64,000 bases of DNA from an uncultured delta proteobacterium (GCA_963809875.1 CAWELC010000005.1:152836-216835), one strand, 5' to 3'; positions 24,048-48,921 are shown, counted from the stretch's first letter. Notes: generated by a model from the letters alone, not told the origin. Numbers and translations: made by a program.

Positions 24048-24058
24048 GTCTCAGGGTT

Positions 24059-24084
24059 GGAAGACGCGGCGTGCCGCGTCTTCC
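24059..24084 (+). terminator. Candidate intrinsic terminator (GGAAGACGCGGC / GCCGCGTCTTCC stem) after the transketolase genes
   Basis: A perfect 11-12-bp inverted repeat sits 12 nt after the stop. The downstream U-tract is weak (AATAAATT), so confidence is modest. Confidence 0.35.
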
Positions 24085-24171
24085 AATAAATTCCCGCACG
24101 TACTTCTTTCGGGTGTCGCTCGCTCATGAATCGTTGGCGGGGGGAGAATAAACGGTGAGTAACTCCACGTG

Positions 24172-25746
24172 CTAAACGCTCTTCAGGGAATTGCGGTATC
24201 TTTCGACCGCGTCCATGGGGGCACCATCAAATTTCAGTGCTCCCTGATCTATCCATAGCGCTCGCGTGCAGACCTGCTGTACGAAATTCATGTCGTGAGT
24301 TACCACGATTACCGCTTCGGCAAAGTTCACTAATTCCTGTATCCTCGTTACCGCGGCCTCATAAAAGGTTATATCGCCTACGCCCAGCGCTTCGTCTATT
24401 ATCAGGAAATCAGGTTGGATCATCGAAGCGATACTGAACCCCAGCCTTGATTTCATACCACTTGAGAAGTTCTTTATCGGCTCATGTATGAATTTCTTTA
24501 GACCCGAAAATTCAACGATTCCGGGATACATTTCCGTTAGCACCTTCCTGGGAATTCCCAGAATCATACCATTAAGAAAGATATTGTCGTTTGCGGTCAA
24601 TTGAGGATTGAACCCCGTTCCATAACCGAGCAGCGCGTTGACTTCACCCTTCATCCATATGGATCCGCCGTCAGGTTTGAATATCCCGTTGATCACTTTG
24701 CAGAGGGTCGTTTTCCCTGAGCCGTTGCGCCCTATTATCCCGATGATTTCGCCCCTTCGCACCTCGAACGTTACATTCTTCAAAGCCCAGAAGATCTTCT
24801 TTCTCCTATCGAAGAAGGTCTTGTATTTTTCCAGCCCATGATACTTCTTTCTCGGTCTGGATAGATGGAACGCTAATGACACATTCTTGGCCGAGAGAAT
24901 CGTTTCTCCTGTTGAGGTCTTCTTTGTCTTGCTGAAAAGAAGCTTCTTCTTTGGAGTGATCTTCTGGAATTTCTCCCTGTATTCTTTCACTATCTGCGCC
25001 GGGGATCCGGCCGAAAAAACCCTCCCGTCTTCAATCCACAGGGTGCGGGTACAAAACCGTTCGACAAAACCCATGTTGTGCGTAACAACGATGACCGTCT
25101 TTGACCTCCCGATGATCTCTTTCATTCTCTTGCCGGCTCTTTCGCTGAATTCAAGATCTCCGGCACCTAATACCTCGTCGATAACAAGGATGTCCGGTTC
25201 GATGGATGATGCAATGCTAAAGCTCAATCGTGACTTCATTCCGGTTGAATAGTACTTCAGCGGTTGATCGATGAAACCGCCGATACCGGAGAACCGTATT
25301 ATGCCCGAAGCGAGCGCGCGGGTCTCTTGCTTCGAAAAACCGAGCATCATCCCGTTCAAAAAGATATTTTCTCTCCCGGTAAGCTCCGGATTAAAACCGG
25401 CACCCAGAGAGAGAAGTGCCGATACGGAACCCTTGACGACAATATCGCCCTCATCCGGCCTCAGCAGTCCCGATAAGACCCTGCACAGTGTTGTCTTACC
25501 AGCCCCATTTCGACCGATGATTCCCAGAATCTCTCCCTCGGTGCAGCAGAAACCGAGGTCACGGAGGGCCCAGAATTCACTTTTCCTGTTTCTTTTGAGC
25601 AGCACGTTATACGTGAAAGACTGAAGATCTTCCCGTCTGTTTCCGATAAGATACTTCACTCCTATATTTGACGCTTCTATGGAATAGGGGCGGTGGAGCG
25701 CCCGTTCCTCCGGACATTGAATGTTATCTTGCTTCGATACAATCAT
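24172..25746 (-). CDS. ABC transporter ATP-binding protein with two tandem nucleotide-binding domains (polysaccharide/O-antigen export type, Wzt/TagH/KpsT-like)
   Basis: 524 aa. Two Walker A motifs (GRNGAGKTT and GRNGSGKTT), two ABC signatures (YSTGMKSRL and FSSGMKSRL) and two Walker B motifs (ILVIDEV and FLIIDEA). Confidence 0.75.
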   Translation of the reverse strand: MIVSKQDNIQCPEERALHRPYSIEASNIGVKYLIGNRREDLQSFTYNVLLKRNRKSEFWALRDLGFCCTEGEILGIIGRNGAGKTTLCRVLSGLLRPDEGDIVVKGSVSALLSLGAGFNPELTGRENIFLNGMMLGFSKQETRALASGIIRFSGIGGFIDQPLKYYSTGMKSRLSFSIASSIEPDILVIDEVLGAGDLEFSERAGKRMKEIIGRSKTVIVVTHNMGFVERFCTRTLWIEDGRVFSAGSPAQIVKEYREKFQKITPKKKLLFSKTKKTSTGETILSAKNVSLAFHLSRPRKKYHGLEKYKTFFDRRKKIFWALKNVTFEVRRGEIIGIIGRNGSGKTTLCKVINGIFKPDGGSIWMKGEVNALLGYGTGFNPQLTANDNIFLNGMILGIPRKVLTEMYPGIVEFSGLKKFIHEPIKNFSSGMKSRLGFSIASMIQPDFLIIDEALGVGDITFYEAAVTRIQELVNFAEAVIVVTHDMNFVQQVCTRALWIDQGALKFDGAPMDAVERYRNSLKSV

Positions 25747-25751
25747 GGTTT

Positions 25752-26537
25752 TTACAGCAGTTTGATAATTTTATGCTCGTTTCTACTGTAGTAGAATAGC
25801 ACAAGAACCGATATCAATAGGGAAAGAGAGCCTATTGATAATAGTGCGACGAAATCCGGTGCGTGATTATGCAGGAATATATCGCGGTAACTTCCCAGAA
25901 AGTGTGTCACGGGATTGAGTTCTATCAACCACCGGAGTCTTTTCGGAAAGGAGTCCTCAAGCCATATCACGGGAGAAGCGAAGAACCACAGTCTCATGAT
26001 ATGCCTGACTATGTTGTCAAAATCCCTTACCTTGACGCCGAGAAACGCCAGGGGAAATGATATCGCCGTCATGAAAAAGAGCTGCATAGCCATGACAAAC
26101 GGAAGCCAGAAAAGGTTCGGTCCGGGGAGTATCTTGAAGAATATCAGGAAGAGAGAGATGATCACGAGTCCGAAACCGAAATTGATCAATTGGGATAACG
26201 TGGCGCCGATGGGAAACAGTATCTTCGGCAGATAGATCTGCGTTATGAGCCCGGCTTCACTGTGTATGGAGCGCTCGGAGGTGCTCACGGTTGAATCAAA
26301 CCAGCGCCACACGACCATTCCGACTACCAGATAGCTCCCGTAGTCGCTGCCGCCCCTCTTGAACACTACCGAAACCAGAAAGTAGTAGATCGCAATGCCG
26401 AGCAGAGGGTCCAGGAGCCACCAGAAATATCCCAGGAAGGTGTTCCTGTGCTGCGCTTTGAGATTTGAGACGACCAGATACAGGAGGAGGTCTTTCCTCT
26501 TATAGAGGTTCCTACAGTACGTGGCGATGTCACCCAT
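25752..26537 (-). CDS. ABC-2 type transporter permease (Wzm/KpsM-like)
   Basis: 261 aa with 6 predicted TM helices. ABC-2 N-terminal pattern (LLYLVVSNLKAQHRNTFLGYFW). It lies directly upstream of the ATPase gene. Confidence 0.75.
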   Translation of the reverse strand: MGDIATYCRNLYKRKDLLLYLVVSNLKAQHRNTFLGYFWWLLDPLLGIAIYYFLVSVVFKRGGSDYGSYLVVGMVVWRWFDSTVSTSERSIHSEAGLITQIYLPKILFPIGATLSQLINFGFGLVIISLFLIFFKILPGPNLFWLPFVMAMQLFFMTAISFPLAFLGVKVRDFDNIVRHIMRLWFFASPVIWLEDSFPKRLRWLIELNPVTHFLGSYRDIFLHNHAPDFVALLSIGSLSLLISVLVLFYYSRNEHKIIKLL

Positions 26538-26620
26538 TTCGGGCTATTTCCTCAGTGTATTCATTTTGCATGGATGAGCAGGGCCAGTCCCTGCTCCTTC
26601 GCTTATACGCATGCACGAAA

Positions 26621-27307
26621 TTAGTCGAAAAAGCGAAACCATAGAATGGAGATTACGGCCGTAATGCCGTCAATCCAGGTGATCTTTTTCCCTTCCTTAT
26701 ATCCGCGGCCGGAATATCTGATGGGTACTTCACAAATGCGGAACTTTTTCTTCGCGATCTTTGCTGTGAATTCCGGCTCAAAACCAAACCTATTTGATTT
26801 CAGCTCTAATTGGGCAATGACATCCCTCTTGAAAACCTTATAGCATGTCTCCATGTCGGTAAGGTCGATATCGTTTAATGCGTTCGATAATAGAGTCAAA
26901 AACCGATTGCCTACCATATTCCAGAAGAACATGACCCTGCGAGGTCTCCCCGAAAACCTCGACCCATATACGACATCGGCGACGCCGTCCAGTATCGGCC
27001 GCACAAGCTCTGGGTAATCCTGCGGGTCATATTCAAGATCTGCGTCTTGTATGATGATTATATCCCCGGCTGCAATGGCAAATCCGCTTCGTAACGCCGC
27101 ACCCTTGCCTTGATTATGATCATGGTATATCGCTTTTATGTTATCCCTCGTTTTTTCTATTTCCTGTATTTTCTCACGACTTCCGTCTTTCGAAAAGTCA
27201 TCTATAATAATGATCTCTTTATCGATTTGTGCTGCCTGCACCTTTGCGATGATCCGCTCAATAGTCGCTGCTTCGTTATAAACCGGCATAATTACTGAAA
27301 TTTTCAC
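26621..27307 (-). CDS. GT2 family polyprenyl-phosphate glycosyltransferase (DPM1/ArnC-like)
   Basis: 228 aa. SVIMPVYNE, IIIDD(F)S.DGS and QDADLE (DxD) motifs. Confidence 0.75.
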   Translation of the reverse strand: MKISVIMPVYNEAATIERIIAKVQAAQIDKEIIIIDDFSKDGSREKIQEIEKTRDNIKAIYHDHNQGKGAALRSGFAIAAGDIIIIQDADLEYDPQDYPELVRPILDGVADVVYGSRFSGRPRRVMFFWNMVGNRFLTLLSNALNDIDLTDMETCYKVFKRDVIAQLELKSNRFGFEPEFTAKIAKKKFRICEVPIRYSGRGYKEGKKITWIDGITAVISILWFRFFD

Positions 27308-27405
27308 TATACATCCTTAAGACCACAGACCAACTCCTCGGTCAAGTCAGCGGCACGGCCATTCATGGTCCTTGGCCCGCGCCATCGTTACGAAAATGAG
27401 GTTTT

Positions 27406-29643
27406 CTATTCCTTTCCTCTCATATTGTAGAGAACTACACCGGCCCCGGTCGAGGAAAACGAATCCAATTTTATTTCATTTCTTTCTAGCTCAGCGAGGA
27501 TGGTATCGATGTGAAACTCCTTACTGCTCTTTCCCTTGAAAACGTGCGAATAGACCAGCCATACCCTTTCACGCCCCCGTGTCTTCTTATATATATCTTT
27601 GGCATAGTCCTGAGGGTTCTTTTTCGCATATATGCCTTTCACATATTCCATGTCCTCTAAAGAGAATCTCTTAAGGTAATAACTGTAGGCCCGTCCCGAA
27701 TTATGAAAGCAGTAGACCAGATCGCCCTCCCTCCTATTCTCCGAGATATACTTCAGGACCGGCTTGATTTCCTCGGGATCGAGCAGGACGGGCCTAAAGA
27801 AGGCGACGGAGCCGTCGGGCACGGGTGCGAACAATAATAGGATGAGAAACAGCCCGAAGATCATCGTCGACGTCCTCTTCTGTAATATTTCGACTATCGT
27901 CCAGAGCCCGTCTACTAAGACGAGGATTGCGATTGGGAGTATGAATAGTATGAGCCTCTGATAAAAGGGATACAAATGGAGCGCGGACAGCAATAGAGTT
28001 ACGATAATAGGCGAGAGCAAAAGGAGCGCCTTCCTCTTGTCGGCAACGAGGAGGGATGCTATACCGCTCAGGGAAACAGCCATCCAGAGCACGGGATAGG
28101 CGAGATGGAGGGAGAATTCAGAAGCAAAGACGTCATAAAATGAATTGAGGTACCATTTCGCATTTTCGAGAGAGACAGGTGCGGGCGCGAAATATTCCGC
28201 CCAGTATTTCTTCAAGAAGTCGTTTCCTGTGCCATATTTCAGACTTATGAAGTAGCTTAGTGCGAAGCTCATAAGACATACGAAAAGGATAATCGCCAGA
28301 GACCTAAACTGCTTACCATTCTTCTCGATGAGTGAAGACAGCATTAAGGTGGCGCCTACACCGGCCAGAACGAAGACGACGGGATGTGAAAACCAGATAA
28401 TCGTTGCCCCACAAACCGACAAAATGGCAACTGTCTTTGCCGTATAGGCTTTGTTTGAGTAATGGAAGAATATTAGATACATGAGGATAACTGCAAAGAC
28501 GTCCCCGGTATACTGCTTCACTACCGACGAGTAGTAGATCAATGATGGGGTTATTGAGAAGAGCAAGAGGCTTATCGGAACGGCCGGGGGCTTGAGTACC
28601 TGTTTGGATACAGCATAAAAGAGAGGGACCGAGGCAATGCTACAGATCAGTGGGAACAGACGCAAAGAATAGTCGCTGTCACCGAAGATACAGGTCATGG
28701 CTTTGAGGGATACGAGAAATCCGATGGGGGCAACTTGGCTGTAATTCAAAGGGCCGAAGAGGTCCAACAGATTGTACCTGAGTATATTTCCAGCAAGGGC
28801 CAGTTCGTCAAGCCATAGGGACCGATCATACTGGTACTGGTAGAGCCGAAATAGGATGCCAAGGGTTACTATGAACCAGATGAATGACTTAGACGCGTAC
28901 AGTCTCTTTGGAAAATCAACGAAGCTTTGGGAAAAACGCGGAATGGTTTTTCCGTCCGTCGATCTCTGACTTCCTCGTGAAGTCCTTAACTCTGAAAGCG
29001 TCATGCAGAGGAGCACGGAGAAAATGAACGAAAGCCCGATGAGATAGAATCGACCTATTCTGTTGCCTGATTCAATACTACCAATGAGGTTGCCGGACAG
29101 TTCAAAATGTGGATCGGTCCCCGTTGAAATGAGATACATTGCCTCATCTCGAAGATCCGGACCATTAATCTCGCTGGCCGATGTAATATTCCCGGTCAGT
29201 TCTCCGGCGCTGATAAAAGTGTATTCACTCCTGAGCCGGCTCTTCACCGTGATCTTCTTTATCGCGATGAGACCCTCGTGATGCCCCGGATCTATTCTGA
29301 TAGATTTAAGTTTCTTTGAAGGTAAATCAAAGACCAGTTCGGAAAATTCCCCGGGCTCATTGTACCGGCATTTTATGGAGTCTTTCTCGTTATAGCCCTT
29401 TCCGATGCTGTAATAAACCTGATAGGTGTCCGATACGGGTCCCTTTACGGTGATAGTGAGCGTTATAGGGGAATGGAAGTCTTTAAAGAGGAATAGTAGA
29501 GAAAAAAGTATGAAAAGAAGGAGTGGCGCTAAATAAACATAACCGTTCTTGAAGTATCGAATAATACCCTTTCTTATGGCCGATCGCACCTCTATATCGA
29601 AAAAATCGCCTTTATCTACCATATCTGCCGGGAGCATCTTCAA
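27406..29643 (-). CDS. Large polytopic membrane protein, GT-C-like (GT39/ArnT/PMT-like) glycosyltransferase candidate
   Basis: 745 aa. A central region of about 11 TM helices has a DE-containing first loop (WLDELA), as in ArnT/PMT-type transferases. It pairs with the adjacent DPM1-like GT2. The N- and C-terminal soluble extensions are not assigned. Confidence 0.5.
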   Translation of the reverse strand: MKMLPADMVDKGDFFDIEVRSAIRKGIIRYFKNGYVYLAPLLLFILFSLLFLFKDFHSPITLTITVKGPVSDTYQVYYSIGKGYNEKDSIKCRYNEPGEFSELVFDLPSKKLKSIRIDPGHHEGLIAIKKITVKSRLRSEYTFISAGELTGNITSASEINGPDLRDEAMYLISTGTDPHFELSGNLIGSIESGNRIGRFYLIGLSFIFSVLLCMTLSELRTSRGSQRSTDGKTIPRFSQSFVDFPKRLYASKSFIWFIVTLGILFRLYQYQYDRSLWLDELALAGNILRYNLLDLFGPLNYSQVAPIGFLVSLKAMTCIFGDSDYSLRLFPLICSIASVPLFYAVSKQVLKPPAVPISLLLFSITPSLIYYSSVVKQYTGDVFAVILMYLIFFHYSNKAYTAKTVAILSVCGATIIWFSHPVVFVLAGVGATLMLSSLIEKNGKQFRSLAIILFVCLMSFALSYFISLKYGTGNDFLKKYWAEYFAPAPVSLENAKWYLNSFYDVFASEFSLHLAYPVLWMAVSLSGIASLLVADKRKALLLLSPIIVTLLLSALHLYPFYQRLILFILPIAILVLVDGLWTIVEILQKRTSTMIFGLFLILLLFAPVPDGSVAFFRPVLLDPEEIKPVLKYISENRREGDLVYCFHNSGRAYSYYLKRFSLEDMEYVKGIYAKKNPQDYAKDIYKKTRGRERVWLVYSHVFKGKSSKEFHIDTILAELERNEIKLDSFSSTGAGVVLYNMRGKE

Positions 29644-29806
29644 GTTTTGTTTTTCTCAGCCTTGGGGCATATCGGATTATGGGAAGCGTTGTAACACAGC
29701 CGTCCTTCAGCGCGCAAGCGAATAACGCAATTCGCACTTTTTGGAGTGGTCTTAAAGCATCTTAAGTTGATCTGCAAAGGCTTAATCAGTACACGGGTCT
29801 ACACGC

Positions 29807-30508
29807 TTACGTACCGACTCCTCGTTTTTGAGCATAGCCCCAATTGTTCTTTATCTCACAATTTGTGTACCCGGGGTGTGCTGCAACAAGTAGTTCAAAA
29901 ACTTTCAGTACTTGGGGAGTTTCGCGATAGTCGGCCGGCATCTTCGTTACATGCGGTTTGTCTTTAAGAGCTTTGCTTGTGGAATATGACCAGTTGATAT
30001 CATCGAAAATGAGCCAGCCTCCGTCCTTCAGAAATCTATCCACCAGGAAAAAAGCGAAGCCGGTTACGTCCCACGTATGCCCCCCGTCAAGATAAGCGAG
30101 ATCGAACTCTTTGTCCATGCCTTCCTCAAGCCAACGCATAAGTCGCCACGTAAAAGAGCAAGGTTCTCTGATCAGCTCAACCATGTGTGCCAGATTGCAT
30201 TGGTCAAGCAGTTCCTCAGCTTTCGGCGACCGGTCATGAGAGCTTTCAAGATCTATTGAAACAACACGATTGCCACCAGCTTCCTGCATCGCTCCTGCCA
30301 TATAGCACGTGGATACACCATGGGCAAAGCCCAGCTCAAGAATTTTCCTTGGACGATGCGTCAAGATAAAATCCGTCATTCGCTGTGCCTGCTCTATACG
30401 CATGAAAGGAGTATCGCGAACGACGGCTTTAATGTCATTGATCTTCATGTCGTCCCCACAGCCAACTTTGGGTCTTCTCTTCAGGGAAGCCACAAGCACG
30501 TATTTCAA
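29807..30508 (-). CDS. Class I SAM-dependent methyltransferase
   Basis: Rossmann-like motif ILELGFAHGVST and an acidic residue after beta-2 (VSIDLE). The true start is possibly MKINDIK at 30448. Confidence 0.6.
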   Translation of the reverse strand: MKYVLVASLKRRPKVGCGDDMKINDIKAVVRDTPFMRIEQAQRMTDFILTHRPRKILELGFAHGVSTCYMAGAMQEAGGNRVVSIDLESSHDRSPKAEELLDQCNLAHMVELIREPCSFTWRLMRWLEEGMDKEFDLAYLDGGHTWDVTGFAFFLVDRFLKDGGWLIFDDINWSYSTSKALKDKPHVTKMPADYRETPQVLKVFELLVAAHPGYTNCEIKNNWGYAQKRGVGT

Positions 30509-30544
30509 GAACTTAACACGGTCCGTAAGAACAACTATCCAGGA

Positions 30545-33500
30545 CTAAGGTGTTTTCCGCAACGCTTTAACGAAAGGTTGAAGGCGATCCCTGTGCCGGG
30601 AGTATCCGAAGTTTCGCTTAACGAAATCCCGGGCGATTTTGACTCTTTCCCGATAGAAAGCATGGTCACGGTGGAGCTGCTTAACAATATCCCGGACTTG
30701 TGAGGGTCGGGCGTAGAGCGCCGCCTCTTTAAACAGAGGACGAAAATGTTCAGGCAATATAACCGGAACGCCGGCTGCCATCGCTTCCAGCGGGGCGCGG
30801 GCGAAGGCTTCGACAGAATCCTGATGATGGAAATATACGAATACGTCGATTTCGGACAGAAACTCCCTTGGATGCATTGAATCAAACGGATATACGTCCC
30901 AATTGGGCGGGACAAACCCCACTACTTTTTGTACCGCTTTCGCTCCTCCCAGGATTTTGACCTGAAACCTGTCATCATCCGGGTAGGCGTCAAGGAGATC
31001 TTTCGGATTACCGGGCCACTTGACGTATTGATCCCGGGAGTGCCTGCCGATGACCGGGCGATCGTGTCTGCATTTGGCAGAAGGGGATGACCATTCGTCC
31101 ACATTGATAATGTTTACCCAGTCCGTATCCGCAAGGTTTATGATTTCTTTAACATCTCGTTCCTTAAGCACCGCACTGCGAGCCTGCGGACCGACGGGGT
31201 GCCAGACCCCTTTCTGTCCAAAGTAGCGCACCAGATTCTCGCTGCACGTTTTAAAATCATACACGCGTTCCCCCGTATCGCCATAATCACGAAAGGGTGA
31301 TCCATTAATTATCACACGTACTTCCAGGGGCAAAACCGCTGGAATATAGTCCTGATAATCCTGCAATGTCGGAGGGCCTCTAACAATAAGCAAATCGCAG
31401 GTTACTTCCTCTCCGTAGACAATCATTTGTACCGAGCGGCCGTCGATTTTGCATCGAACTTTCTCGGTAATGGGACGAGAATATGAGGTACTGTACCGTG
31501 CAATTTGCACCAAGCCCGTGTTGAGTCCGAGAGCTCTTTGAGCCTTGATTTCCTCAGCATTAGAGCTCGTGGTTCCACCGGGAAGCCGAAAATCGGAGGC
31601 GATGATCACGTCAAAATGGCGTTTTTTGGGGTGTTTGGTTTTCTTGCCGGGCCGCATTGGTTCCGGGATGGGAAAGAGCCTGGATTTTTGCGGGAATCCG
31701 TAGAAGAGACTGTCTGCGTTATCATGATAGTGTCTGAAGCTTTCCCGGTATTCCTTGCGTGCGCCCATGTAGTAACCGGGAAAGCCAAACGCAGCGTTTC
31801 CGGTCAAAGAATCTTCGGACTGCCTCGAAAAAGAAAGCGGTCCTGTAGGTAAATGGACGATAGAATCCTGGCCAAACACCTTTAGTAGCCGCTGTAAGAA
31901 CTCGCCATCGCCGCCGAATCGAACACTATCCCAGTAACCGATAGCATCCATCACGGCATTACGCCGAAACATCAGTGAGGACATATTGGACTGGATATAA
32001 AAACCGGGGTTGCCCCGGCGATAGAATTTCAGATTGTCCCTGGCACGGGCCAACTCTGACGTATTGGCTACTACTTCCGGCGTTCTGATCAGATGGAGAG
32101 CCTGTTGCTCAATTTTTTCCGGATGGGACCAATCGTCGGCGCCGTGACAGGTTACGAGAACTCCCGTCGCCAGTTTAAGCGCGATATTCTGCGCCACGTA
32201 AGGACCCTGGTTGATCCTCGATCTAATCAAGTGAACCCTGGCATCTTTCTTAACGTATTTTTCAACTACGTCCACGGTTGCGTCGGTGCTGCAGTCATCA
32301 ACCACCAATACTTCCAGATTGGACCATGTTTGCGCAAGGATAGAATCGAGGGCGGTGCGTATCGTCTTCTCGGCATTATACGCGGGCACTATCACGGTTA
32401 CGGCGGGCGAGCCTCCTGTCGTGTGCGGCTCCTTCCCGGGTTCGTGGCCCGGACGCAGGCAGTCAAAAGGCGGCAGGTCCGAGGCAGCGTCGTGAGAGAT
32501 TTCCGGAATCCCGCATAGATTGAGCGCTTTATTAATACAGTCTATTTGTCCTGAAATCGAAGTCTCCAGGTTCGCGGCGGCAAGGTACAGATCCGCGCTG
32601 GGGCCGGAAGACAGGGCGTCATCGACCGTTCTTTTACCCGCTTCCCGATCCCCCAAGAGATCATAACACTCGCCCTCAAGCAGGGATATCCTCTGAGAAC
32701 GATCCTGAATTTCTTGATCCCGGGCGGCTATCGCAAGCAGTTCCAGGCAGCGCCTGGCATCTTCTTGAGTGTATTTATCGGCATGCCATAAAGCCAGCTC
32801 CCAGGCGGCAAGCCGTTTGAGAGAAGGGTTTTCGTTTTGGCTGGATAAATCCCGCAAGTCCGAAGAGGCTCGCTCCGAAAAGCCCCCGCTTAACATGCGA
32901 CGTCTGAGATATGCTATTAAATCCTGGTCTTTCTTACTTTCCTTTTCTTCCTTAATGAATAGATCTGATGGGCCGCTCGATTGTACCTGCAGGGGCGATT
33001 CGGTTCTCGCTCCTTGATCTCGGCCTGGGCCGAGGGACGACGGGGACTCGTGGCCCGGTGCTGTCGTAGCCGGAGATGAACCAGTGGTTCCTTTCCACCT
33101 GTCTTCATTGACTACTTTCGACCAATCCTCTTTTGCCAGGGTTATCGCCTTCAGGTCGTCACCATGGTGTTTGTGAAGCGCGTCCCGTAGTTCCGGATCG
33201 CAGGGATACCAGACGGCGGGCTTGCCGAAGTACTCCTGAAGATGTTTTGAGCACCGCTCAATGTCATAGACGACGCCTTCAGAGCCTGAATCGTTATCAG
33301 GTGTTTGACTGAAAACAACCGCCACTTCGGTCGCTTCCACATCAGGAATGTGTCGCTGCCGTTCCTGAAGGACACGGGGGTCTCTGACAATTAATGTGTC
33401 ACAGCGGATTGCCTCTCCATAAACGACCATTTGAACCTGATCGCCGTCTATTATTTCGCGGAGGCGCTTATCGTAGTTGATTCTCGGGTTAGTTTCATAC

Positions 33501-35311: not shown

Positions 35312-35558
35312 TTCGAGCAGGCGAGACTTTAACTCGGCCTATCTCTCCCTTCCCGTAGAGATTGGCTAACCCTTTGACGTGATGGCCCGGCGGTGAAGTA
35401 TCTTGATAGCTTCCCCCGAAGTTCGACGGATTTCTTTTACCGGGTGATTTCCTCACTTTCCCTGTCTTCTTCCCCGGGTCGCTCCCGACTCCCCGGTTCT
35501 TCTTCGGCCTGGATATCCCCAGAAGCGGCCTGATCTTTGTTTCCCAAAGACGGTGCAT

Positions 35559-37578
35559 CTATCGTTCTCCGGACGGACCGTTGGCCTTAAAAAGACTCAT
35601 AAAATAGCCATACGTTTGCCTACCCTCGCGCTTGTGACAGAACGCCTTGGCCGTTTCTATTCCATTCGTTCGTATCCTGTTTCGAAGCGTACTATTCCTG
35701 ATGAGTCTTATGATCGCTTCCGCGGCCACATCAGGATTTTTCGGCGGGACCATGATGGAGTTTTCCATGTGTCTGGCATATTCGTTGACTCCGCCTACGT
35801 CTGTAACGACGCATGCCGCTCCACACGCCATCGCCTCCAGAGCCGGTCTTCCGAACCCCTGGAAGTCCGATCCGTCAAAAAAAACGTCGGCCTGAGAGTA
35901 CAACATCGCCAGTCTATCCTGGTTACTCACCACTCCCGCGTTTACGAACTCGAAAGGGATCTCGCTTTTCGGAAGATTCTCATCACCGAAGAAAATGATC
36001 TGAGCCTGCGGGATTGCCGTTTTTACCCGCCTGAATGTCTCTATCACGTTATTGTATCCCCTTTTGGGCGTTCGGGGACGCGCCATCGCCATGACGGCGG
36101 GGCAGTCCTTCTTTTCGCTTTCCCTCGGGTAAAAAAAACCGAGATCCATGCCCAGGCGGATCTTGTTAGTATTATAGTCGTGGCACGCTAACATCGCTTT
36201 GAGCCAGTCGGATTTTACGATCTTATTGGGAATAAGCGCGTATGAGTTGATAACCGCCTTTCTCTTCTCGATTTCCTCCTCGGGATAGAACCAGCTCTCA
36301 TAATCCTGGATAAAATATACCGGTATCATCGATGGGTTTTTCTTGAGAAGCTCCGGTACCCAATAGGCGGTATTCCAAAGGGTCGCCACCACGATATCGG
36401 TGGGAGGAAATTCCTCGAGTAATTCCTTCTCACTAGTATAGACAATCGGCTCAAACAGCATTTTCCAGTCATCCAGCTCCGGATACTTAAAGAGCGTGGC
36501 AATTCGCGCTTCGACCCCGTGAAGGATCAGCTCGTTTACCAGCTGAACGACGGAAAGCACCCCCCCGGCAAGGATCATACGGTGCAGTAAATAGGTGACC
36601 CTGAGACGATCGGGTCTTGTTACTCTACTCAAGAACTCTTTCCTGATCGCGGGTTGACGATAACTGGATAATGACCGTATTCCTCTATAGAGCTCCCTGG
36701 CGGATGTGCCCCATTCTCTCTTTCTCAGCTCCCTCCTGACCTTTCTCCCGACGATCCTCACAGCGTAATCTAAATTGAACCGGGACGGGTACCCTGCCTC
36801 GGTCCGTATATAACGTAAAGGATCATTCTTCAGGAAGAGCTTATACTGTTTTCGGTACTCTTTTTTCCACCTCCCATTGAATATCGCTATATTTCTTTTA
36901 AATCGCTCATCCCTTGAAAAGAATGACGCTCTGCCCTTGTGGTAAACGAACGTATCATCGCATACGACCGTTCGGTATCCATCGGTCGTCAGGCGCATAC
37001 AGAGATCAGACTCCTCGCAATACCCCCTGTCGTAGATTTCATCGAAATAGCCGATCTTCTCTAATATAGCGCGCCGCAGGAGCATGCAGAACCCCACTCC
37101 GGTGACGATATCGGGGTATTGAGCCCTGGATCGAGAGGAGGCAAGCTCATTCATACCGAAGATATTCGCGCCGGGTGCGATTGCGAGATCAATATTGGCG
37201 GCGAAGTTCGTCAGGGGGTTCACCGACGCGATCCTTGGGTCCGATGACGCGCATCGAATCATCTTGCTTAGCCATCCGGGGGTGACAATCGTGTCGCTGT
37301 TCAGAACAACGATATATTCCGATCCCCCGATCTTCATCCCCTTATTGCTGCTGCGCAGGAAGCCGATCCTCCGTTCTATTGGAATAGAGTGATACATGTC
37401 GATGTTTTTCCGAAAAGGCCCGGAGGTACTCCCGAACGTGCCCATCGCTATTATCATCTATGATTATCAAGCTATAGGGCACATCTCTCGTGTAGTTAAT
37501 GATCGAGTCGAGGCAATCCTTAGTGTAGGCCATTGCATTGAAGACAGGCAGCACAATATTGCAGATAGGCTTGATCAT
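35559..37578 (-). CDS. Bifunctional GT2 (N-terminal) + GT1/GT4-like (C-terminal) glycosyltransferase, apparent frameshift near 37400
   Basis: The GT2 N-terminus ICNIVLPVFN..IIIDDNSDG is in ORF 37342..37578. The remainder (VVLNSDTIV..; C-terminal EAMACGAACVVTDVGG) is in ORF 35559..37457 in another frame. Confidence 0.6.
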
Positions 37579-37777
37579 GAGTAACCTTTGTGAGAACAGA
37601 ACTAATGCCCTTGCCCTAAATTACGACATTTATACGCAATAGCACTATAGGATGAGAGATATTACGGAATGACCGCTGCCACATGAGTAGCCAATGATAG
37701 GATAAAGCACCCTTCTAAGCTCAATATCTATGCTTCTAAACCGTTCCAGGGACTTTCCCTTACTATGCCGCACTTCA

Positions 37778-39442
37778 TCATTTCATCGATTTGCGTTCCC
37801 TTCTTTTTTGCACATCGATAATCTTTGCTTCAACCTTATAGTTCTCTCCCGGTCCCGGTGCTGCAATTACTTCGTCGATACCATCAGCGTCCAAATCACC
37901 GGAGGCGACGTTGAGCCCGTATTTCAGTTCAAATGGGAATGCTTTGAAGATCGATTCCCACCTGCTGTTGAATATACGCAAATGATCGCCCGAGTACTTC
38001 GATGGCCCCGGGCCGGTAATGATTTCGTCCAAACCATCGCCGTCTATATCTCCCGATGCGAGATTAATCCCATAAATTGCCCCGGGAATGTAGGCCAGGA
38101 CCCAGGGATTTTGGATGAACGAGTTAGTACTATTGTCAAAATCCAGATACGCAACGTACGCCCTGTAGACCCGTATATGGGCAAGGCCGAGGAGTATCTC
38201 ATCCCGGCCGTCGCCGTCGATATCACCGCTCCCCACCTGGAGGCCGTGTCTGATCTTCTTGAAATAATCGTCTTGGTCAACGAAATCGATAATCTCAAAC
38301 TCACGCACTATCCGGCCGTTTCCGTTGAACACCCTGATCACCGGTTTATAGCCCTGACCCGGCCCCGGCGCGGTTATGATCTCGTCCAATCCATCGCCGT
38401 CGATATCTCCCGCGGCGACATTGGCTCCGAACTTCTTGCACGGAAAAGCCGTAAAATGTGCGATCTCATGTCCCTTACCATCGAGGACTTTGATCAGCGT
38501 ATCGTTTGTGTAATGCGGGCCCTTGGCTGCAATAATCTCATCAATCCCGTCACCGTTGATGTCTCCGGCGGCAATGAGTACGCCATAGCGGACCTTCTTT
38601 TCGAAAGCCCGAAAGGTATTAAGGACGACGCCTTTCTCATCACGTACCAAAATCTCTGTATCATTGTCTGGATGGGGGCCTTTGCCGATCAATAGTTCGT
38701 CTTTTCCATCTCCGTTAACATCGCCGGCGGCAACCGTCGCGCCTCTTCCATAGCTATTGTACAGCTCGCCTCCGGGAAGCCCGATCTGGAAATTACTGAT
38801 CAGTCCGGGGATTAGAAAAACGAAGAACGCCGTAGCCACGGTGGCATGCGTCAGACCTAACGTGAATATATTCCTGTTTCTCAGAAACAAGATGCAGAAG
38901 AGCAAGCCGCCTAGAAGCGTTAACAGCATGAGCTTCCAATCGGGGGCGTGCATAAGCGAAAAAAGAACAGCAGCAATCGGGACCGCAATGATGTTCGATC
39001 GAGAAATCTCCTTGATTCTCAAAAGGAGAAAGCTATTGAGAAAGAACTGCTGGAAGATACCCCCACCTATATACGTTGAAAAATTGGCGAGAATCGACAT
39101 GAATGTGCGAGGCATGAATATCGGATCGAAGAAAAGAAATATGGAGATAATAATTGCGATTGAAAGGAGAGTGGCGATGCCGCATTCTTTTAATGATCTT
39201 GGGATATTGTCAAACCGGATCCCTATTTCCGGGAGGGTATCGGCGTGAACAAGAAAACTGAGCGAGAAAACGAGAATACAAACGCTGCCCGAGAAAATCG
39301 AATAATATAATCCAAATACACAAAGTCGAAAAGGCCACACTATTGAAAAATAGGCGCCGAGCACGATCAGGAGTTCCACAAGGGAGTACAACCTCGGTTT
39401 ACTGGAATAGAATTGCCTTGCGTAAGACAAAGCTTCGTGCAC
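37778..39442 (-). CDS. Fusion protein: N-terminal CPBP (CAAX-protease/Abi-like) intramembrane domain + C-terminal FG-GAP/integrin-alpha-type beta-propeller repeats
   Basis: The N-terminal 230 aa are polytopic with FSLMH and ..H...N motifs of CPBP proteases. The C-terminus has at least 6 repeats of the calcium-binding GD(I/V/L)(N/D)GDG.DE(I/L) pattern. Confidence 0.55.
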   Translation of the reverse strand: MHEALSYARQFYSSKPRLYSLVELLIVLGAYFSIVWPFRLCVFGLYYSIFSGSVCILVFSLSFLVHADTLPEIGIRFDNIPRSLKECGIATLLSIAIIISIFLFFDPIFMPRTFMSILANFSTYIGGGIFQQFFLNSFLLLRIKEISRSNIIAVPIAAVLFSLMHAPDWKLMLLTLLGGLLFCILFLRNRNIFTLGLTHATVATAFFVFLIPGLISNFQIGLPGGELYNSYGRGATVAAGDVNGDGKDELLIGKGPHPDNDTEILVRDEKGVVLNTFRAFEKKVRYGVLIAAGDINGDGIDEIIAAKGPHYTNDTLIKVLDGKGHEIAHFTAFPCKKFGANVAAGDIDGDGLDEIITAPGPGQGYKPVIRVFNGNGRIVREFEIIDFVDQDDYFKKIRHGLQVGSGDIDGDGRDEILLGLAHIRVYRAYVAYLDFDNSTNSFIQNPWVLAYIPGAIYGINLASGDIDGDGLDEIITGPGPSKYSGDHLRIFNSRWESIFKAFPFELKYGLNVASGDLDADGIDEVIAAPGPGENYKVEAKIIDVQKRRERKSMK

Positions 39443-40320
39443 TAGTGAGAAATCCTTTTTACAGTATTACGCAGTTGAAGTGTCAATACTTCTATAGATG
39501 TCATGAAGAAACGCAATAGAATCCCGCAGGCGACAAGAATATGAGTGAATGGATTCCTCCGAAGATACTTTCTATAGTACAACCACATGCCCCGGTGTCT
39601 TTCATAATTGATTTTTATTGTCGGTACGGTCCTGCTTATGCCGATTTCATGTGAGACTGATACTTCGGGATGATATACTACTCGATATCCGGCTCTTGCC
39701 AATCGATTGCAGAAATCCACGTCTTCATGGAAAAGAAAGTAATCTTCGCAAAAACCCCCAATTGCGTCAAAGACATCCTTTCTTACTATCATGGCGCATC
39801 CCGAGACCCAATCTACCTGCTGTGATTTATCGTCGCTCATTATAGGATTAAGATATTCTCTGGAAAACCTGTTGCTCGGAACCAGCCTGGTGAGAATAGA
39901 GCCTCGATTGAATAGAGCAGTTCTTAAGGTTGGAAAATTTCGAGCAGAAAGCTGTCTTGTTCCATCGCTCGGATTCAGGATCTTAGGACCCAGAACGCCG
40001 ACATGATCCGTCGAGAGATAGCCAGGAATATTTCTAAGGTCATGCGTTAGTATATACGAATCCGGATTCAGCAAGAAGATTATGTCTTTGCTCGCATGTT
40101 TTATTCCGAAATTAGCACCGGAGCCATAACCCATATTCTTTTCTAATTCTATGAGTCTGACGTTGTTAAACCTGCTCCTTATTAATTGTTTTGTCATGTC
40201 CCGGGAATTATTGTCCACGACGATAATCTCATACGGGATTCCTTTGATCGACGAAATATGTTCAAGGCACGCCGTGATGGTTCTCTCGCTGTTGTGAGTT
40301 ATTATTACAAAGCTTATCAT
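39442..40320 (-). CDS. GT2 family glycosyltransferase
   Basis: 292 aa. SFVIITHN, IVVDNNSRD, a DxD-like motif and a C-terminal hydrophobic tail. Confidence 0.75.
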   Translation of the reverse strand: MISFVIITHNSERTITACLEHISSIKGIPYEIIVVDNNSRDMTKQLIRSRFNNVRLIELEKNMGYGSGANFGIKHASKDIIFLLNPDSYILTHDLRNIPGYLSTDHVGVLGPKILNPSDGTRQLSARNFPTLRTALFNRGSILTRLVPSNRFSREYLNPIMSDDKSQQVDWVSGCAMIVRKDVFDAIGGFCEDYFLFHEDVDFCNRLARAGYRVVYHPEVSVSHEIGISRTVPTIKINYERHRGMWLYYRKYLRRNPFTHILVACGILLRFFMTSIEVLTLQLRNTVKRISH

Positions 40321-41312
40321 CGCGCACCACCATTTGGAAAAAGTTTTGCCCTTATTTTTCCAAGAAACCAGCCGTCTGCTATTAAAGATCTAACATATCG
40401 ATTTGTGACCTTCCTTTTTTCCTGGATAACACGTCTCTTCTTTACGGTACCAATAAAGCGGATTATAAACGAAAACTTCGCACTGAAAAAGGAAATCAAT
40501 TCCCCTTGCATCGTGAAATATAGGAATGCTGATATGTTGTAAATAACATGCATCGGCAAGTGAGAAACCAAGAGGCTCAGCGGCATGTTCTTGAAAAAAA
40601 CATATTCCAGATTCCTTTGTCCGTAGTAACTGAAAACCCGGTTAATGTCCTTAATTGTTCCACTCGTCTTGTGGTATGCGATTGCTTTCGGACAATAAAT
40701 GCATTTATAACCCGCCAGCTGAGCACGAAAGCTTAGATCCACGTCCTCACACATAATGAAGAAATCTTCATCAAACAGCCCGATTTCTTGCAGCATCTCC
40801 CGACGATATACCACGGCCGCGGCGCACGCGCCGAAGACGTATTCGAAGTCGTTGTAGGAGTCTATCCTTTGCCCAAGTCCGCGTTTTGCGTTGACCCCCC
40901 CTCTCGTATAGAGATCTCCGGCTGTATCAATGGCATCCCTTCGATAGAAATTGACTATTTTGGAAGCGCAGAAACCGGCGTCCGGATAGAGCTTGAGACA
41001 TTCAAGAGACTCTTTCAGCCAGTCCTCATGTGCGACCGCGTCGTTGTTGAGGAGTGCTACAAAGTCTCCCGCACCCGATCTGATTCCAATATTGTTGGCA
41101 CCGGTAAAACCACGGTTTTCCTTCAAAGGTATTATTTCTGTGTCCCCGTACCTACTGGAAACATACTCTACAGACCCGTCATCAGACCCATTGTCTACAA
41201 GAACAATTCTTTTGTCCCGGTGGCTTTGACCGTATACTGAATCCAGGCAATCAGACAAGAAATGCTTTCCATTCCAATTTACGATTACCACGTCTACTTG
41301 ACTGTCTTTCAT
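40317..41312 (-). CDS. GT2 family glycosyltransferase (rhamnosyltransferase-like)
   Basis: 331 aa. VVIVNWNG and VLVDNGSDDGS motifs. It is the first gene of the minus-strand glycan cluster and overlaps the next gene by 4 nt. Confidence 0.75.
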   Translation of the reverse strand: MKDSQVDVVIVNWNGKHFLSDCLDSVYGQSHRDKRIVLVDNGSDDGSVEYVSSRYGDTEIIPLKENRGFTGANNIGIRSGAGDFVALLNNDAVAHEDWLKESLECLKLYPDAGFCASKIVNFYRRDAIDTAGDLYTRGGVNAKRGLGQRIDSYNDFEYVFGACAAAVVYRREMLQEIGLFDEDFFIMCEDVDLSFRAQLAGYKCIYCPKAIAYHKTSGTIKDINRVFSYYGQRNLEYVFFKNMPLSLLVSHLPMHVIYNISAFLYFTMQGELISFFSAKFSFIIRFIGTVKKRRVIQEKRKVTNRYVRSLIADGWFLGKIRAKLFPNGGAR

Positions 41313-41405
41313 ATCTGGAAGATCGTGTGTGTGGGTAGATTACTCATACAGTAGTCAACGTACATAGAAAATCTTGTTATTATTACCACATTTCCAGAAA
41401 AAGTA

Positions 41406-41429
41406 AAGGGGGATTAATTATGCCCCCTT
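41406..41429. other. Hairpin AAGGGGG-(10 nt)-CCCCCTT in the AT-rich leader upstream of the glycan cluster
   Basis: A perfect 7-bp stem is seen directly in the sequence. It lies about 95 nt upstream of the first GT2 start codon. Function unknown. Confidence 0.3.
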
Positions 41430-41698
41430 AGTAAGAACTATTTGGTATTACTAAATAGTCTCCTGCGAATAGCTTACCCCTCCTTTTTTTGGATATTTGT
41501 CGCTCCGAGAGCTCATCCCCTAACGCACGTTCTTTGAATACGAAAGCAGGACGGAATTGGAGGGGGGTTGCCACAACTCCGATGTGGAAGACTCTTCGAT
41601 GTGAACCCAAGTCTTCTCCTCTGTCTGCCATAGAGTAATTGACTTCCGGTCGGCGTTATGGTACGATAACACTTGTCTAGGGAGTGAACGGTTATTAC

Positions 41699-41730
41699 GT
41701 GCCCCCCGGTAGTTCAGGGGATAGAGCATT
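41699..41730 (+). other. Truncated tRNA-like fragment (acceptor 5' strand + complete D-arm only)
   Basis: GCCCCCCGG TA GTTC AGGGGATA GAGC A matches the 5' ~29 nt of a tRNA. It is 16/16 identical to the D-arm of the tRNA-Arg at 49286. No anticodon or T arm follows. Confidence 0.35.
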
Positions 41731-42206
41731 CTCTGACTACCTACTAGGGCGGGAAAATAGAAAAACAGGCAGTCTCATGAGTCATAGCTGCCGTTTCAAT
41801 CAGGGTCCTTGGTAGTGGGGACACGCTTTTCTCAGACGTTCACATGCTTTCCGCCGCTATTCGAGCATCGAACTGGTAATACGCCTCTGATACTCCTGAA
41901 GCCTAGCAATTTCGTTCCGATCGTTGATGAACATCCGAAAGAGGACGATCCCTTGATCTTCGGGTGTCCTGACAATGATCGCGTCCTTTCTATACTGAAC
42001 CGTATCGTCCGGACCGATGAATAACGTCTGTACGAATGAGAGCCGCCGCCGACCGGATCATGCACGGTGTGACGGATATGCCAAATCAAAACTGGAGAGG
42101 CAACACCCGGAAACCGATTCCGCAATTTAATCGACATGACCATACTTCACTCCAAAAAGGAAGCTCGTATCAACATCAATCGCTTATCGACAAAACAAAA
42201 TAATAT

Positions 42207-43298
42207 ATGTACATCGAAGAATTAATCAGGGCGCGCAATGAAATCGCCGAGATGGAAGCCTTAGAGGCATCCATCCTGGAGGCGATACCTCACGCCGTCA
42301 TCGGGTTAATGGACAGAAGGATTATTTTTGTCAATCAGGGGGTCACGGCTGTGTTCGGCTGGACATCCGATGAACTGATCGGCAGGAATACCCGTCTTTT
42401 GTACCGGACAGAAAAGGACTATGAAAGGATCGCCGGCAAACTCTATTCCGTTCTGGAAAAGCAGCCCATTACCAGCATGGAGTTCCCCTGTGTACGGAAA
42501 GACGGTACGGAAATAGAGTGCATGATCAACGCTGCGCGAATCGGCGAAAAATTAAAAGAAAAACGAGTGGTTATTACCTATGAGGATATTACGGACCGGA
42601 AACGGGCAGTACAAGAACTTGAACTGTCAAGGCAGCAGTTGCGCAAATTATCGGCGCACCTTGAATCAATACGGGAAAAGGAAAGAACCCGTATAGCACG
42701 TGAGTTGCACGATGAGTTAGGGCAGCTTCTGACGGCAATGAATACGGACATCATCCTGCTGAAAAACAAGATCCCGGCCGAACAGACGGTGCTGTCGGAC
42801 AGAGTTCATAGCCTTTCCTCCCTCGTTGATCTGACGATGAAGACTGTCAAGCAGATTTACATGGGGTTGCGTCCGGGCATGCTCGATCATCTCGGACTGA
42901 CAGCGGCCATCGCCTGGCAGGCCGAGGAATTTTCCAGACGCACCGGCATCGCCTGCAAAGTATCCTTAAGCCCGGAAGATATGGTCATCGATCCGGATTT
43001 GACGACGACCGTATTTCGCATTTTTCAAGAAACCTTGACGAACGTGCAGCGTCACGCCGAGGCCACGAGAGTAACTGTCCGCCTGAGGGCTACTAACGAC
43101 CGGCTCGAGTTTGTTGTCAAGGATAACGGCAAGGGCATCACGCATCATCAGATGAAAAAACCCGATTCGTTCGGTTTGCTGGGGATCAAAGAACGGGTCT
43201 ATCACTGGGGAGGGAAGGAGGCCATCGTCGGGAAAAGCGGGCGGGGCACCACCATAACGATCAGCATCCCCTTGCCAAAGACGGGAGAAAGGTCATGA
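42207..43298 (+). CDS. Sensor histidine kinase, cytoplasmic PAS + HisKA_3 + HATPase_c (NarL/LuxR-partner type)
   Basis: 363 aa with no TM segments. PAS domain, then an H-box ERTRIARELHDELGQ and N/G boxes (QETLTNVQRHA, LGIKER). Confidence 0.8.
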   Translation: MYIEELIRARNEIAEMEALEASILEAIPHAVIGLMDRRIIFVNQGVTAVFGWTSDELIGRNTRLLYRTEKDYERIAGKLYSVLEKQPITSMEFPCVRKDGTEIECMINAARIGEKLKEKRVVITYEDITDRKRAVQELELSRQQLRKLSAHLESIREKERTRIARELHDELGQLLTAMNTDIILLKNKIPAEQTVLSDRVHSLSSLVDLTMKTVKQIYMGLRPGMLDHLGLTAAIAWQAEEFSRRTGIACKVSLSPEDMVIDPDLTTTVFRIFQETLTNVQRHAEATRVTVRLRATNDRLEFVVKDNGKGITHHQMKKPDSFGLLGIKERVYHWGGKEAIVGKSGRGTTITISIPLPKTGERS

Positions 43299-43939: not shown

Positions 43940-44021
43940 CCGTCATGTGTCCCTTCATCAGCATCGGGAATAACACAGGGCTTTCTCTATCCTGAGAATA
44001 AATTTACGGCAGTTGCATCCT

Positions 44022-44681: not shown

Positions 44682-44685
44682 GGTT

Positions 44686-45654: not shown

Positions 45655-46176
45655 AACCCTACTCCTTGCTTGGTCGGTTGAGGAGACGATCTATCTCTAT
45701 TCCCTATCCTTCTTTGTAGTGGCACTCTACTCTCTGACGCTTTTCCCGGCAATCAGGCCGGGTCTGATTCTTTCTTGGGAGAAGGGATGGAATTGACTTC
45801 AGACAAAAGGCGGCTTTGTCATCGGTGTTTGTCTGATGGAAGCAGGCTGGTTCTTGTCAAAATCAAAATGGCATGCACCTTTGTACCCTGTCATTGAAGA
45901 TTGATCAGAATCAACTTACACCTTTGCGAGAGACTTCCGGTTGTACATCAAAATATAAGGAGCTGCGATATCTCGCAGCTTCCCAGTCGCTATCCGGGAT
46001 TGATCGCTGTCATTTACTCACGTGCCCATCCGTATCGTCTTTCGTGCAGGAGACTTATCCAAGATCGCCTCTCGAAGCCTTCTATATGGGACTTGATCCC
46101 GTTCTATACCAGCCGGTTGATGATCCAGCCGGCTTCTTCCTGGGCATCGAGGTTGCCGCATAATCTCAATCTAGAG

Positions 46177-46241: not shown

Positions 46242-48921
<2,680 letters not shown>

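Follow-up and report, generated by a model that had tools for sequence, protein, structure and literature searches.

The Wzm-Wzt systems of Escherichia coli O9a, Klebsiella O2a, Aquifex aeolicus and the mycobacterial galactan, as well as TagGH/TarGH, combine an ATP-binding cassette (ABC) permease of the ABC-2 type with an ATPase of the Wzt/TagH family. In ABC-dependent O-antigen pathways, cytoplasmic glycosyltransferases (GTs) are encoded alongside, a methyltransferase belongs to the cluster, and Wzx and Wzy are missing. Low-G+C, mosaic surface-glycan loci beside tRNA genes are a textbook feature of bacteria. Here we describe a locus that resembles these systems in all the respects named and that is known from its genes alone. 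It lies in a 64,000-nt stretch of DNA from an uncultured delta proteobacterium (GCA_963809875.1, CAWELC010000005.1:152836-216835), which as a whole is referred to as the window.

In our view, the segment at 24.05-41.6 kb is probably an operon-like, single-strand locus for an ABC-transporter-dependent surface polysaccharide, forming the older, tRNA-anchored and module-shuffled part of a 25-kb atypical region. The system looks like an ordinary, well-known kind of variable surface-glycan locus that is old rather than recently imported. What sets this otherwise ordinary pathway apart is its compact Wzt, in which two ATP-binding domains are fused and a carbohydrate-binding domain is lacking. The locus mainly adds one more lineage to a known pattern, the uncultured Candidatus Zymogenaceae (Desulfobacterota) from a sulfidic spring.

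Composition and Boundaries

The first-pass annotation of the window had described 24.1-41.9 kb as a 17.8-kb island with a G+C content in the mid-40s %. A block richer in A+T than its flanks does exist, although the estimate was slightly too low: the G+C content of 24,100-41,900 is 0.488 (48.8%, or about 49%), compared to 0.604 (60.4%) in the left flank (1-24,047) and 0.610 (61.0%) in the right flank (49,361-64,000). In a 1-kb profile, a trough of 0.43-0.55 extends between 24 kb and ~47 kb, while the flanks range from 0.57 to 0.64. The 17 intervals of 1 kb within the block (mean 0.490, maximum 0.552) do not overlap with the 38 intervals of the flanks (mean 0.607, standard deviation 0.020, minimum 0.565; Mann-Whitney p = 4e-9). 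Codon usage follows the same trend, with a pooled G+C content at third codon positions (GC3) of 0.56 in the ten genes of the block (0.44-0.65 per gene) vs. 0.78 in 24 flank genes (0.67-0.86 per gene). First and second codon positions (GC1 and GC2) lie below those of the flank genes as well, and the dinucleotide signature distance is moderately raised (49-68 vs. 32-46 in the flanks).

The left edge is sharp. Within the 124-nt spacer between the stop codon of the transketolase C-subunit gene (24,047) and that of the convergent ABC ATPase gene, the 200-nt G+C profile drops from 0.61 to 0.45. Gene order breaks at the same point: a 92% relative of the transketolase is encoded in the metagenome-assembled genome (MAG) Candidatus Zymogenaceae Zod_maxbin.0311 (contig L001), and tblastx homology to this contig spans 16.2-24.05 kb and ends exactly at the transketolase stop. 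The L001 sequence past the transketolase has no match anywhere in the window.

On the right, no edge is found at 41.9 kb, where one had been placed. The G+C content remains at 0.47-0.55 until ~46.9 kb (0.518 for 41,901-46,725), and the five genes that follow the glycan block have GC3 values of 0.53-0.63; KatG alone (0.72) nears the host value. The atypical composition runs to ~46.7 kb, and synteny with the closest relative returns only at 49,197. Flanking direct repeats, which had been suggested as a mark of the block, were found around 24.1-41.9 kb neither by internal-repeat comparison nor by an nhmmer search of the window. Consensus scans for promoters and terminators gave counts no higher than in shuffled sequence and were not used.

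A Homologous Locus beside the Same tRNA Gene

The age of the glycan block can be judged from a probably related contig, L120, which is 15.9 kb long, has a G+C content of 0.48 and stems from Zodletone, where a single sequencing run yielded both this contig and the Zymogenaceae MAG. From its start, L120 comprises a tRNA-Arg promoter block, an integrase remnant, a hairpin with a G5/C5 stem, a WecA-type enzyme together with a GT-C not orthologous to that of the window, and GT orthologues. The promoter block shares 87% identity with the intact copy of the window, and the match ends at window position 49,199. The remnant (L120 ~130-388), between the promoter block and the glycan genes, is the 70-aa C-terminal part of a tyrosine integrase with its HxLRH...Y box (PF00589, E 3.7e-8).

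Four of the ten window genes have orthologues in L120 (GT2c, 71.5%; GT2b, 62%; the GT2-GT4 fusion, 78-83%; and the giant GT). At the nucleotide level, the GT genes of both loci share 69.5-76.4% identity, and core genes of the window and of the Zodletone MAG (L116) share 74-76%. Since the divergence of the GT genes equals that of core genes and the tRNA site is shared, the data point to an old acquisition with later shuffling of modules instead of a recent import. Judged by these comparisons, the glycan block was probably acquired before the lineages of the window and L120 parted, and modules have been exchanged since. Conservation of the block in syntenic position, which the first-pass annotation had named as an observation that would speak against an island, is thus found in part: the four orthologues adjoin the same tRNA-Arg at core-like divergence.

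The tRNA-like fragment that had been assigned to the far edge of the island is real, but it belongs to another element. It is a 116-nt copy of the tRNA-Arg(CCG) promoter and gene start, which has the same orientation as the intact gene, lies 7.6 kb upstream of it and is 69% identical to the intact copy, with a 4-nt insertion. A 20-mer recovers the fragment with a single mismatch, compared to 0.02 matches expected by chance. Alignment, pattern search and nhmmer established it, whereas Rfam made no call here even at a permissive threshold. Among three genomes, the promoter blocks beside intact tRNA-Arg genes are 84-87% identical, whereas displaced copies are 54-71% identical to intact ones, as expected of decaying relics. 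Because the fragment pairs with the intact tRNA 7.5 kb to its right, the scar delimits a second atypical segment, termed islet B (Table 1), and not the glycan block. As read from these alignments, the scar at 41,627-41,742 serves as the left repeat of islet B and shows where the tRNA once stood beside the glycan block. The two-component system just beyond, which had been taken as part of the island signature, does consist of a histidine kinase and a response regulator; since both lie inside islet B, they are no evidence on the glycan block.

Islet B is not present at the homologous position in L120, nor in L115, the closest relative, which is colinear with the window between 59,870 and 49,197 (80.8% nucleotide identity). 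The similarity to L115 stops 88 nt upstream of tRNA-Arg(CCG). At the same tRNA, L115 carries a different, 8.6-kb islet (L115 12,369-21,081) that ends in a tRNA 5' fragment of its own, and this fragment ends just after the anticodon loop. A search of the L115 islet with the L120 peptide revealed no integrase, and the final 140 nt of L115 past its tRNA fragment show no similarity to the glycan block. The L115 islet encodes a GH5-like enzyme, a GFO_IDH_MocA oxidoreductase, a DegT aminotransferase, an MFS transporter, a PTE and a HAD hydrolase. Other relatives differ in this context: L116 and L118 are without tRNA-Arg at this place, and L001 and L116, both rearranged here, have neither the glycan block nor islet B next to the flank genes.

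These arrangements resemble the 5'-fragment islands of the Islander survey, in which a displaced 5' fragment lies upstream of an intact tRNA and the cargo at the same tRNA differs between genomes; such islands are rare (159 of 3,919; PMC4383910). Islet B, taken as 41,627-49,360, has an intact tDNA with a cognate 5' fragment upstream in the same orientation, which is how these islands are recognized (PMC4383910), while the glycan block has one such end only. The likeness extends to the two tandem segments that the window seems to hold and to the crossover of L115 at the anticodon loop. In contrast to Islander islands, an integrase is represented only by the 70-aa remnant of L120, the tRNA fragment of the window is decayed, and the glycan block has no fragment at its far end. 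A further trace may be the G5/C5 hairpin of the window, which is probably the terminator of an integrase gene, since its counterpart in L120 comes after the integrase remnant.

Evolutionary History of the Region

We propose that, within the 25 kb of atypical DNA that lie 5' of tRNA-Arg(CCG), the glycan locus is the older part. A low-G+C glycan block with an integrase would already have stood beside this tRNA in the common ancestor, as L120 still shows. The 7.5-kb islet B would later have inserted into the tRNA and thereby moved its promoter and 5' part to 41.63-41.74 kb. The integrase gene would then have been lost from the window lineage, with only its terminator hairpin left. The order of the two insertions is what we infer from these comparisons. 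The earlier claim of a horizontally acquired surface-glycan locus holds with respect to composition, the synteny break at the transketolase stop, the tRNA linkage and the integrase remnant of L120, but neither as a self-contained 17.8-kb unit nor as a recent import.

Several points weigh against this reading. The kinship of L120 is deduced from its 87% identical promoter block, the shared sequencing run and the core-like divergence, and the contig ends at 15.9 kb, before any sharing of the exporter, the methyltransferase, the GT2/GT-C pair and the CPBP gene could show. Low G+C has been kept in both lineages without drift to the host value, which a simple old acquisition leaves unexplained. Pfam and a tblastn search with the L120 remnant detected no PF00589-like integrase or remnant thereof in the window. 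Near 24.1 kb, no third tRNA block was found with a 20-mer allowing three mismatches or with an nhmmer profile, so that the glycan block cannot be delimited as an island by repeats. In addition, the GT-C assignment of one membrane protein relies on a PMT_2 match just below the cut-off, and the GT2-GT4 gene is frameshifted, so that the pathway may be impaired.

Three other explanations have to be considered. It is unlikely that 24.1-41.9 kb is a recent, self-contained island of 17.8 kb, with the tRNA fragment as its far edge and the two-component system as part of its signature. The sharp break in composition and codon usage at the left edge would agree with such an event. Databases of very large size contain no close orthologue of the giant GT (the next best, on L120, is 66% identical over the C-terminal half) or of the tandem Wzt (at most 55%), while flank proteins have relatives at 87-93% (93%, 90%, 89% and 87% in an aspartokinase search), and the nearest exporter homologues are found on contigs of 0.34-0.56 G+C. 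However, a recent island of this extent would be bracketed by no repeats and accompanied by no integrase in the window; the tRNA fragment and the intact tRNA enclose the two-component system and KatG instead of the glycan genes; and the atypical composition does not stop at 41.9 kb. The four GT orthologues beside the same tRNA in L120 had already weakened this explanation by their core-like divergence.

We regard it as quite improbable that the locus is native and was never transferred, with a local regime (weak expression, or diversifying selection in which relatives often recombine) lowering G+C and skewing codons, and with synteny breaks due to ordinary rearrangement. Such a regime would account for the counterpart in L120 being equally low in G+C (0.48) at core-like divergence without drift to the host value, and it fits the only moderate rise in dinucleotide signature distance and the lack of a mobility gene in the window. 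It leaves aside, however, the integrase remnant directly beside the homologous block in L120 and the scars of displaced fragments that the linked tRNA gene carries in two genomes. GC1 and GC2 are lowered along with GC3, and Bacillaceae and other distant taxa account for most of the closest homologues of the giant GT, which likewise argues against a native locus. Finally, the source appears to be an assembly from an uncultured organism, given that identical proteins lie together on a 1.04-Mb contig, and faulty assembly could explain the one-base frameshift of a GT gene. Even so, it is highly improbable that the compositional break is an artefact of assembly or binning, with a metagenome contig joined chimerically, because the independent assembly L120 also joins such a glycan block to the same tRNA-Arg promoter block, both junctions are intergenic with sensible features (a terminator hairpin and a correctly oriented displaced tRNA block), and the genes of both flanks match one family of organisms.

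The old, tRNA-anchored locus that we favor may serve as a worked example of how a compositional "island" can be old, common to relatives and composed of two adjoining segments. It further illustrates that a tRNA scar can belong to a neighboring segment and not to the genes that it apparently flags.

Table 1. Features of the glycan locus, islet B and their junctions (positions in the window).
Feature	Position	Strand	Evidence and remarks
Left junction, intergenic spacer	24048..24171	.	Terminator hairpin of transketolase (24,059-24,084); composition and synteny both break
Wzt-type ABC ATPase, two fused nucleotide-binding domains, 524 aa	24172..25746	-	Pfam ABC_tran x2
Wzm-type ABC-2 permease, 261 aa	25752..26537	-	Pfam ABC2_membrane PF01061, E 1e-10, above cut-off
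Soluble GT2, polyprenyl-phosphate-sugar synthase-like (DPM1/AglJ/PpgS/ArnC-like), 228 aa	26621..27307	-	Pfam Glycos_transf_2, E 5e-35
GT-C-like polytopic membrane protein, 745 aa	27406..29643	-	Pfam PMT_2, E 2e-5, 25.1 bits vs. cut-off 26.1
Class I S-adenosylmethionine-dependent O-methyltransferase (Methyltransf_24)	29807..30508	-	Pfam E 2e-18; also rhamnosyl O-methyltransferase/CmcI family match
Giant multidomain GT, candidate polymerase, 1,588 aa	30545..35311	-	1.75 copies of a unit: helical repeats + GT-A (GT2) + GT-B
GT2-GT4 fusion gene, frameshifted	35559..37578	-	Open reading frames 37,578 to 37,342 and 37,457 to 35,559; Pfam GT2 C-terminal part + Glycos_transf_1
CPBP (Rce1-like) + FG-GAP beta-propeller membrane protein	37778..39442	-	Pfam Rce1-like + 5 FG-GAP repeats
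GT2 (GT2b), 292 aa	39442..40320	-	Pfam; L120 orthologue
GT2 (GT2c), 331 aa, first gene of block	40317..41312	-	Pfam; L120 orthologue
G5/C5 hairpin + T-rich tail	41395..41432	-	Conserved with L120 469-500; blastn-short 21 nt at 95%
Displaced copy of tRNA-Arg(CCG) promoter + first ~25 nt of gene	41627..41742	+	Alignments; nhmmer E 1.4e-27
Islet B, second atypical segment, ~7.5 kb	41743..49196	.	Pfam; GC3 0.53-0.63, KatG 0.72
PAS-HisKA_3 kinase	42,207-43,298	+	Pfam; islet B
NarL-type regulator	43,295-43,939	+	Pfam; islet B
CoA-transferase B and A	44,022-45,654	-	Pfam; islet B
Fur-like regulator	46,242-46,733	+	Pfam; islet B
KatG	46,726-48,921	+	Pfam; islet B
Promoter block + intact tRNA-Arg(CCG) (49,286-49,360)	49197..49360	+	ARAGORN + Rfam; conserved core genome resumes

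The Exporter

The Wzm and Wzt genes are 5 nt apart. While the permease has weak NCBIfam matches to galactan Wzm/RfbD and to KpsM, the relationships of the ATPase are clearer: its best matches are TagH and galactan Wzt in NCBIfam, and TarH (6jbh), TagH (7dd0) and Aquifex Wzt (6amx) in the PDB, with Mycobacterium tuberculosis RfbE also among its best solved relatives. Unlike in Wzm-Wzt and TagGH systems, its ATP-binding domains are fused in one chain, which provides two non-identical sites. The two halves are 47% identical, and Walker A, signature motif, Walker B and H-loop are intact in both. Since the two domains fill all 524 residues, no room is left for a carbohydrate-binding domain. In this respect the protein differs from the O9a-type subclass of Wzt, whose C-terminal carbohydrate-binding domain serves for the chain-end cap.

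To what extent this architecture is shared can be seen from a metagenome scan, which yielded 22 loci with a full-length tandem-domain Wzt of 45-55% identity to that of the window. A Wzm (47-62% identity) adjoins it in ~20 of the 22 loci, and in the rest the contig stops short of the permease position. The G+C content of these loci (L081-L102) spans 0.34-0.56, and the GT genes around their Wzm-Wzt pairs are unrelated to those of the window. Among 1.84 billion representative proteins, which were searched exhaustively, compact tandem-Wzt proteins of ~525 aa form only a few clusters, most relatives are ordinary proteins of ~400 aa, and ~50 further clusters comprise proteins of 770-920 aa with two Wzt-type domains. 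The export module is thus conserved, yet a minority architecture, and the locus has a mosaic make-up.

In the literature searched, we found no description of a fused or tandem Wzt, which is no proof of novelty. One might tentatively suggest, with more doubt than confidence, that the exporter is an O-antigen-type ABC transporter of an architecture not described so far. One polypeptide chain would provide the Wzm dimer with both ATP-binding domains, without a carbohydrate-binding domain and with two diverged ATP sites that are possibly asymmetric in function. This arrangement recurs with its own Wzm in ~20 metagenome loci beside varied GT sets, and would here serve a glycan locus anchored at a tRNA-Arg that takes rare 5'-side insertions. 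The fused Wzt and the 5'-side insertion site in the tRNA are minor curiosities. Together with the link between giant polymerase and Methyltransf_24 described below, the fused Wzt offers small leads for research on glycan export.

Glycosyltransferases and Other Genes of the Block

Gene calls place all ten genes of the block on the minus strand, as had been noted before, and searches of Pfam, NCBIfam and PDB sequences agree with the family labels given to them. Two reservations apply: the GT2-GT4 gene is split by a frameshift, and the GT-C label depends on the sub-threshold match mentioned above. Neither Wzx nor Wzy occurs among the ten genes according to Pfam, and the open reading frames of at least 100 aa in the block include no further plausible gene. 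With an ABC-2 permease, a Wzt/TagH-type ATPase, many GTs, a GT2 next to a GT-C-like protein and a methyltransferase, the content of the block bears out the function that the first-pass annotation had assigned to it, ABC-transporter-dependent assembly and export of a glycan. One component of such pathways is missing: a tblastn search with the L120 enzyme found no Glycos_transf_4 homologue, i.e., no WecA-type initiator, in the 64-kb window, although L120 has one. The wecA gene is often encoded elsewhere in the genome, and the initiating phosphoglycosyltransferase may likewise be encoded outside the window.

The most conspicuous gene encodes the giant GT. It contains an internal repeat of 2,001 nt (77% nucleotide identity), and the protein accordingly comprises one truncated and one complete unit of ~800 aa, which are 51% identical; unit 1 is without the C-terminal GT-B half. 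Unit 2 was modelled with AlphaFold 2 (AF2) from a 40-sequence alignment, and the model (predicted local distance difference test, pLDDT, 89.1; predicted template modelling score, pTM, 0.88) displays helical repeats, GT-A and GT-B. Heparosan synthase PmHS2 of Pasteurella is its best fold match (E 3e-23), followed by other GT-A enzymes including the chondroitin polymerase K4CP of E. coli K4, and the two are the best matches in sequence as well. Co-polymerases of the PmHS2/K4CP type are multi-domain enzymes that build alternating polymers, which are then exported by an ABC transporter. The match spans the helical and GT-A part only, at ~22% identity over ~355 columns. In contrast to PmHS2 and K4CP, the giant GT has a GT-B domain as its second catalytic domain and a partial duplication of the unit, which results in two GT-A, one complete GT-B and one truncated GT-B.

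Hundreds of homologues of the giant GT consist of a single unit of ~890 aa with ~50% identity, and many of them occur in alkaliphilic Bacillaceae. Several (P0272, P0273 and others) carry a fused Methyltransf_24 domain, some have alginate-lyase-like or FkbM domains attached instead, and one, in L121, comes after a Wzt fragment. The fusions with Methyltransf_24 suggest that the separate methyltransferase at 29,807-30,508 works with the polymerase.

The small GT2 next to the permease gene and the adjoining large, PMT_2-like polytopic protein resemble pairs of the ArnC/ArnT, GtrB/GtrC and PpgS/Rv3779 type. Pairs of a GT2 and a GT-C are used for adding sugars at the outward side of the membrane. 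Here, however, the NCBIfam matches of the GT2 (best AglJ, PpgS and ArnC) all remain under their cut-offs, and no membrane helix, and hence no membrane anchor, is predicted for it. The GT-C-like protein has at least ten predicted hydrophobic membrane segments and a WLDE motif after a helix near residue 260. It found no sequence match in the PDB and is not orthologous to the GT-C of L120.

In the GT2-GT4 gene, three-frame translation and an alignment to the L120 orthologue, the 5' end of which is intact, revealed one extra base at ~37,372-37,376. As a result, the GT2 N-terminus with its DDNSD motif falls in a separate-frame reading frame of 78 aa. An A5 run near 37,400 was considered as the site of the frameshift and ruled out by the same alignment. 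The gene may be a real pseudogene or the product of an assembly indel. The L120 orthologue is also split, at another site (L120 ~7,535) and beside an A5 run; independent disruptions or assembly indels are possible.

The CPBP-FG-GAP protein combines six N-terminal hydrophobic segments with a propeller for which that of integrin alpha-V is a match. L120 does not contain the gene in its version of the locus, as far as the contig extends. PADLOC returned no defense-system match for this protein or for a small reading frame at 41,832-42,143.

Proposed Pathway

Based on these gene assignments, a pathway can be envisioned, of which we infer the order of enzymatic steps, the lipid carrier and the periplasmic side-branching. 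Assembly of the polymer would take place on the cytoplasmic side of the membrane, on a polyprenyl carrier, with the two small GT2s (GT2b and GT2c) acting first, together with the GT2-GT4 enzyme, provided that the gene of the latter is intact. The giant enzyme with its two GT-A domains and one complete GT-B domain, the unit of which has the fold of capsule co-polymerases, would then extend the chain, and the Methyltransf_24 enzyme would O-methylate the polymer. This methyltransferase may also be the chain terminator, a role for which it is a putative candidate only. A Wzm dimer, driven by the one polypeptide with both ATP-binding domains, would export the lipid-linked polymer, and without a carbohydrate-binding domain this export would be independent of the recognition of a chain-end cap. 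Finally, the GT-C-like protein would add a side-branch sugar outside the membrane, for which the small soluble GT2 would supply the polyprenyl-phosphate-sugar. Such extracytoplasmic side-branching is probable.

Observations on Neighboring Genes

Besides the glycan locus, a few features of its surroundings deserve mention. A second, small replacement site is present in the left flank, where, within syntenic DNA, a PFL-like glycyl-radical enzyme of lower G+C content in L001 (4,852-7,845) replaces the dihydroxy-acid/6-phosphogluconate dehydratase of the window (17,000-19,700). In the right flank, two large adjoining proteins of 790 and 664 aa (52,142-56,498) have no Pfam match and are conserved in L115, L116 and L119. 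Further to the right (59,100-64,000), conserved radical-SAM/SPASM, ScmC and PqqD-like genes together with small reading frames form a peptide-maturation-like locus, which is also found in L115 (1-2,500) and L116 (1-4,200).

Within islet B, subunit A of the CoA-transferase (44,686-45,654) possesses an N-terminal extension of ~60 aa with three CxxC pairs, which is zinc-ribbon-like and lies outside the Pfam coverage. The genes of the Fur-family regulator and KatG overlap by 8 nt, yet differ in GC3 (0.53 vs. 0.72). The presence of a catalase-peroxidase is notable in a lineage described from anoxic sulfidic sediment.

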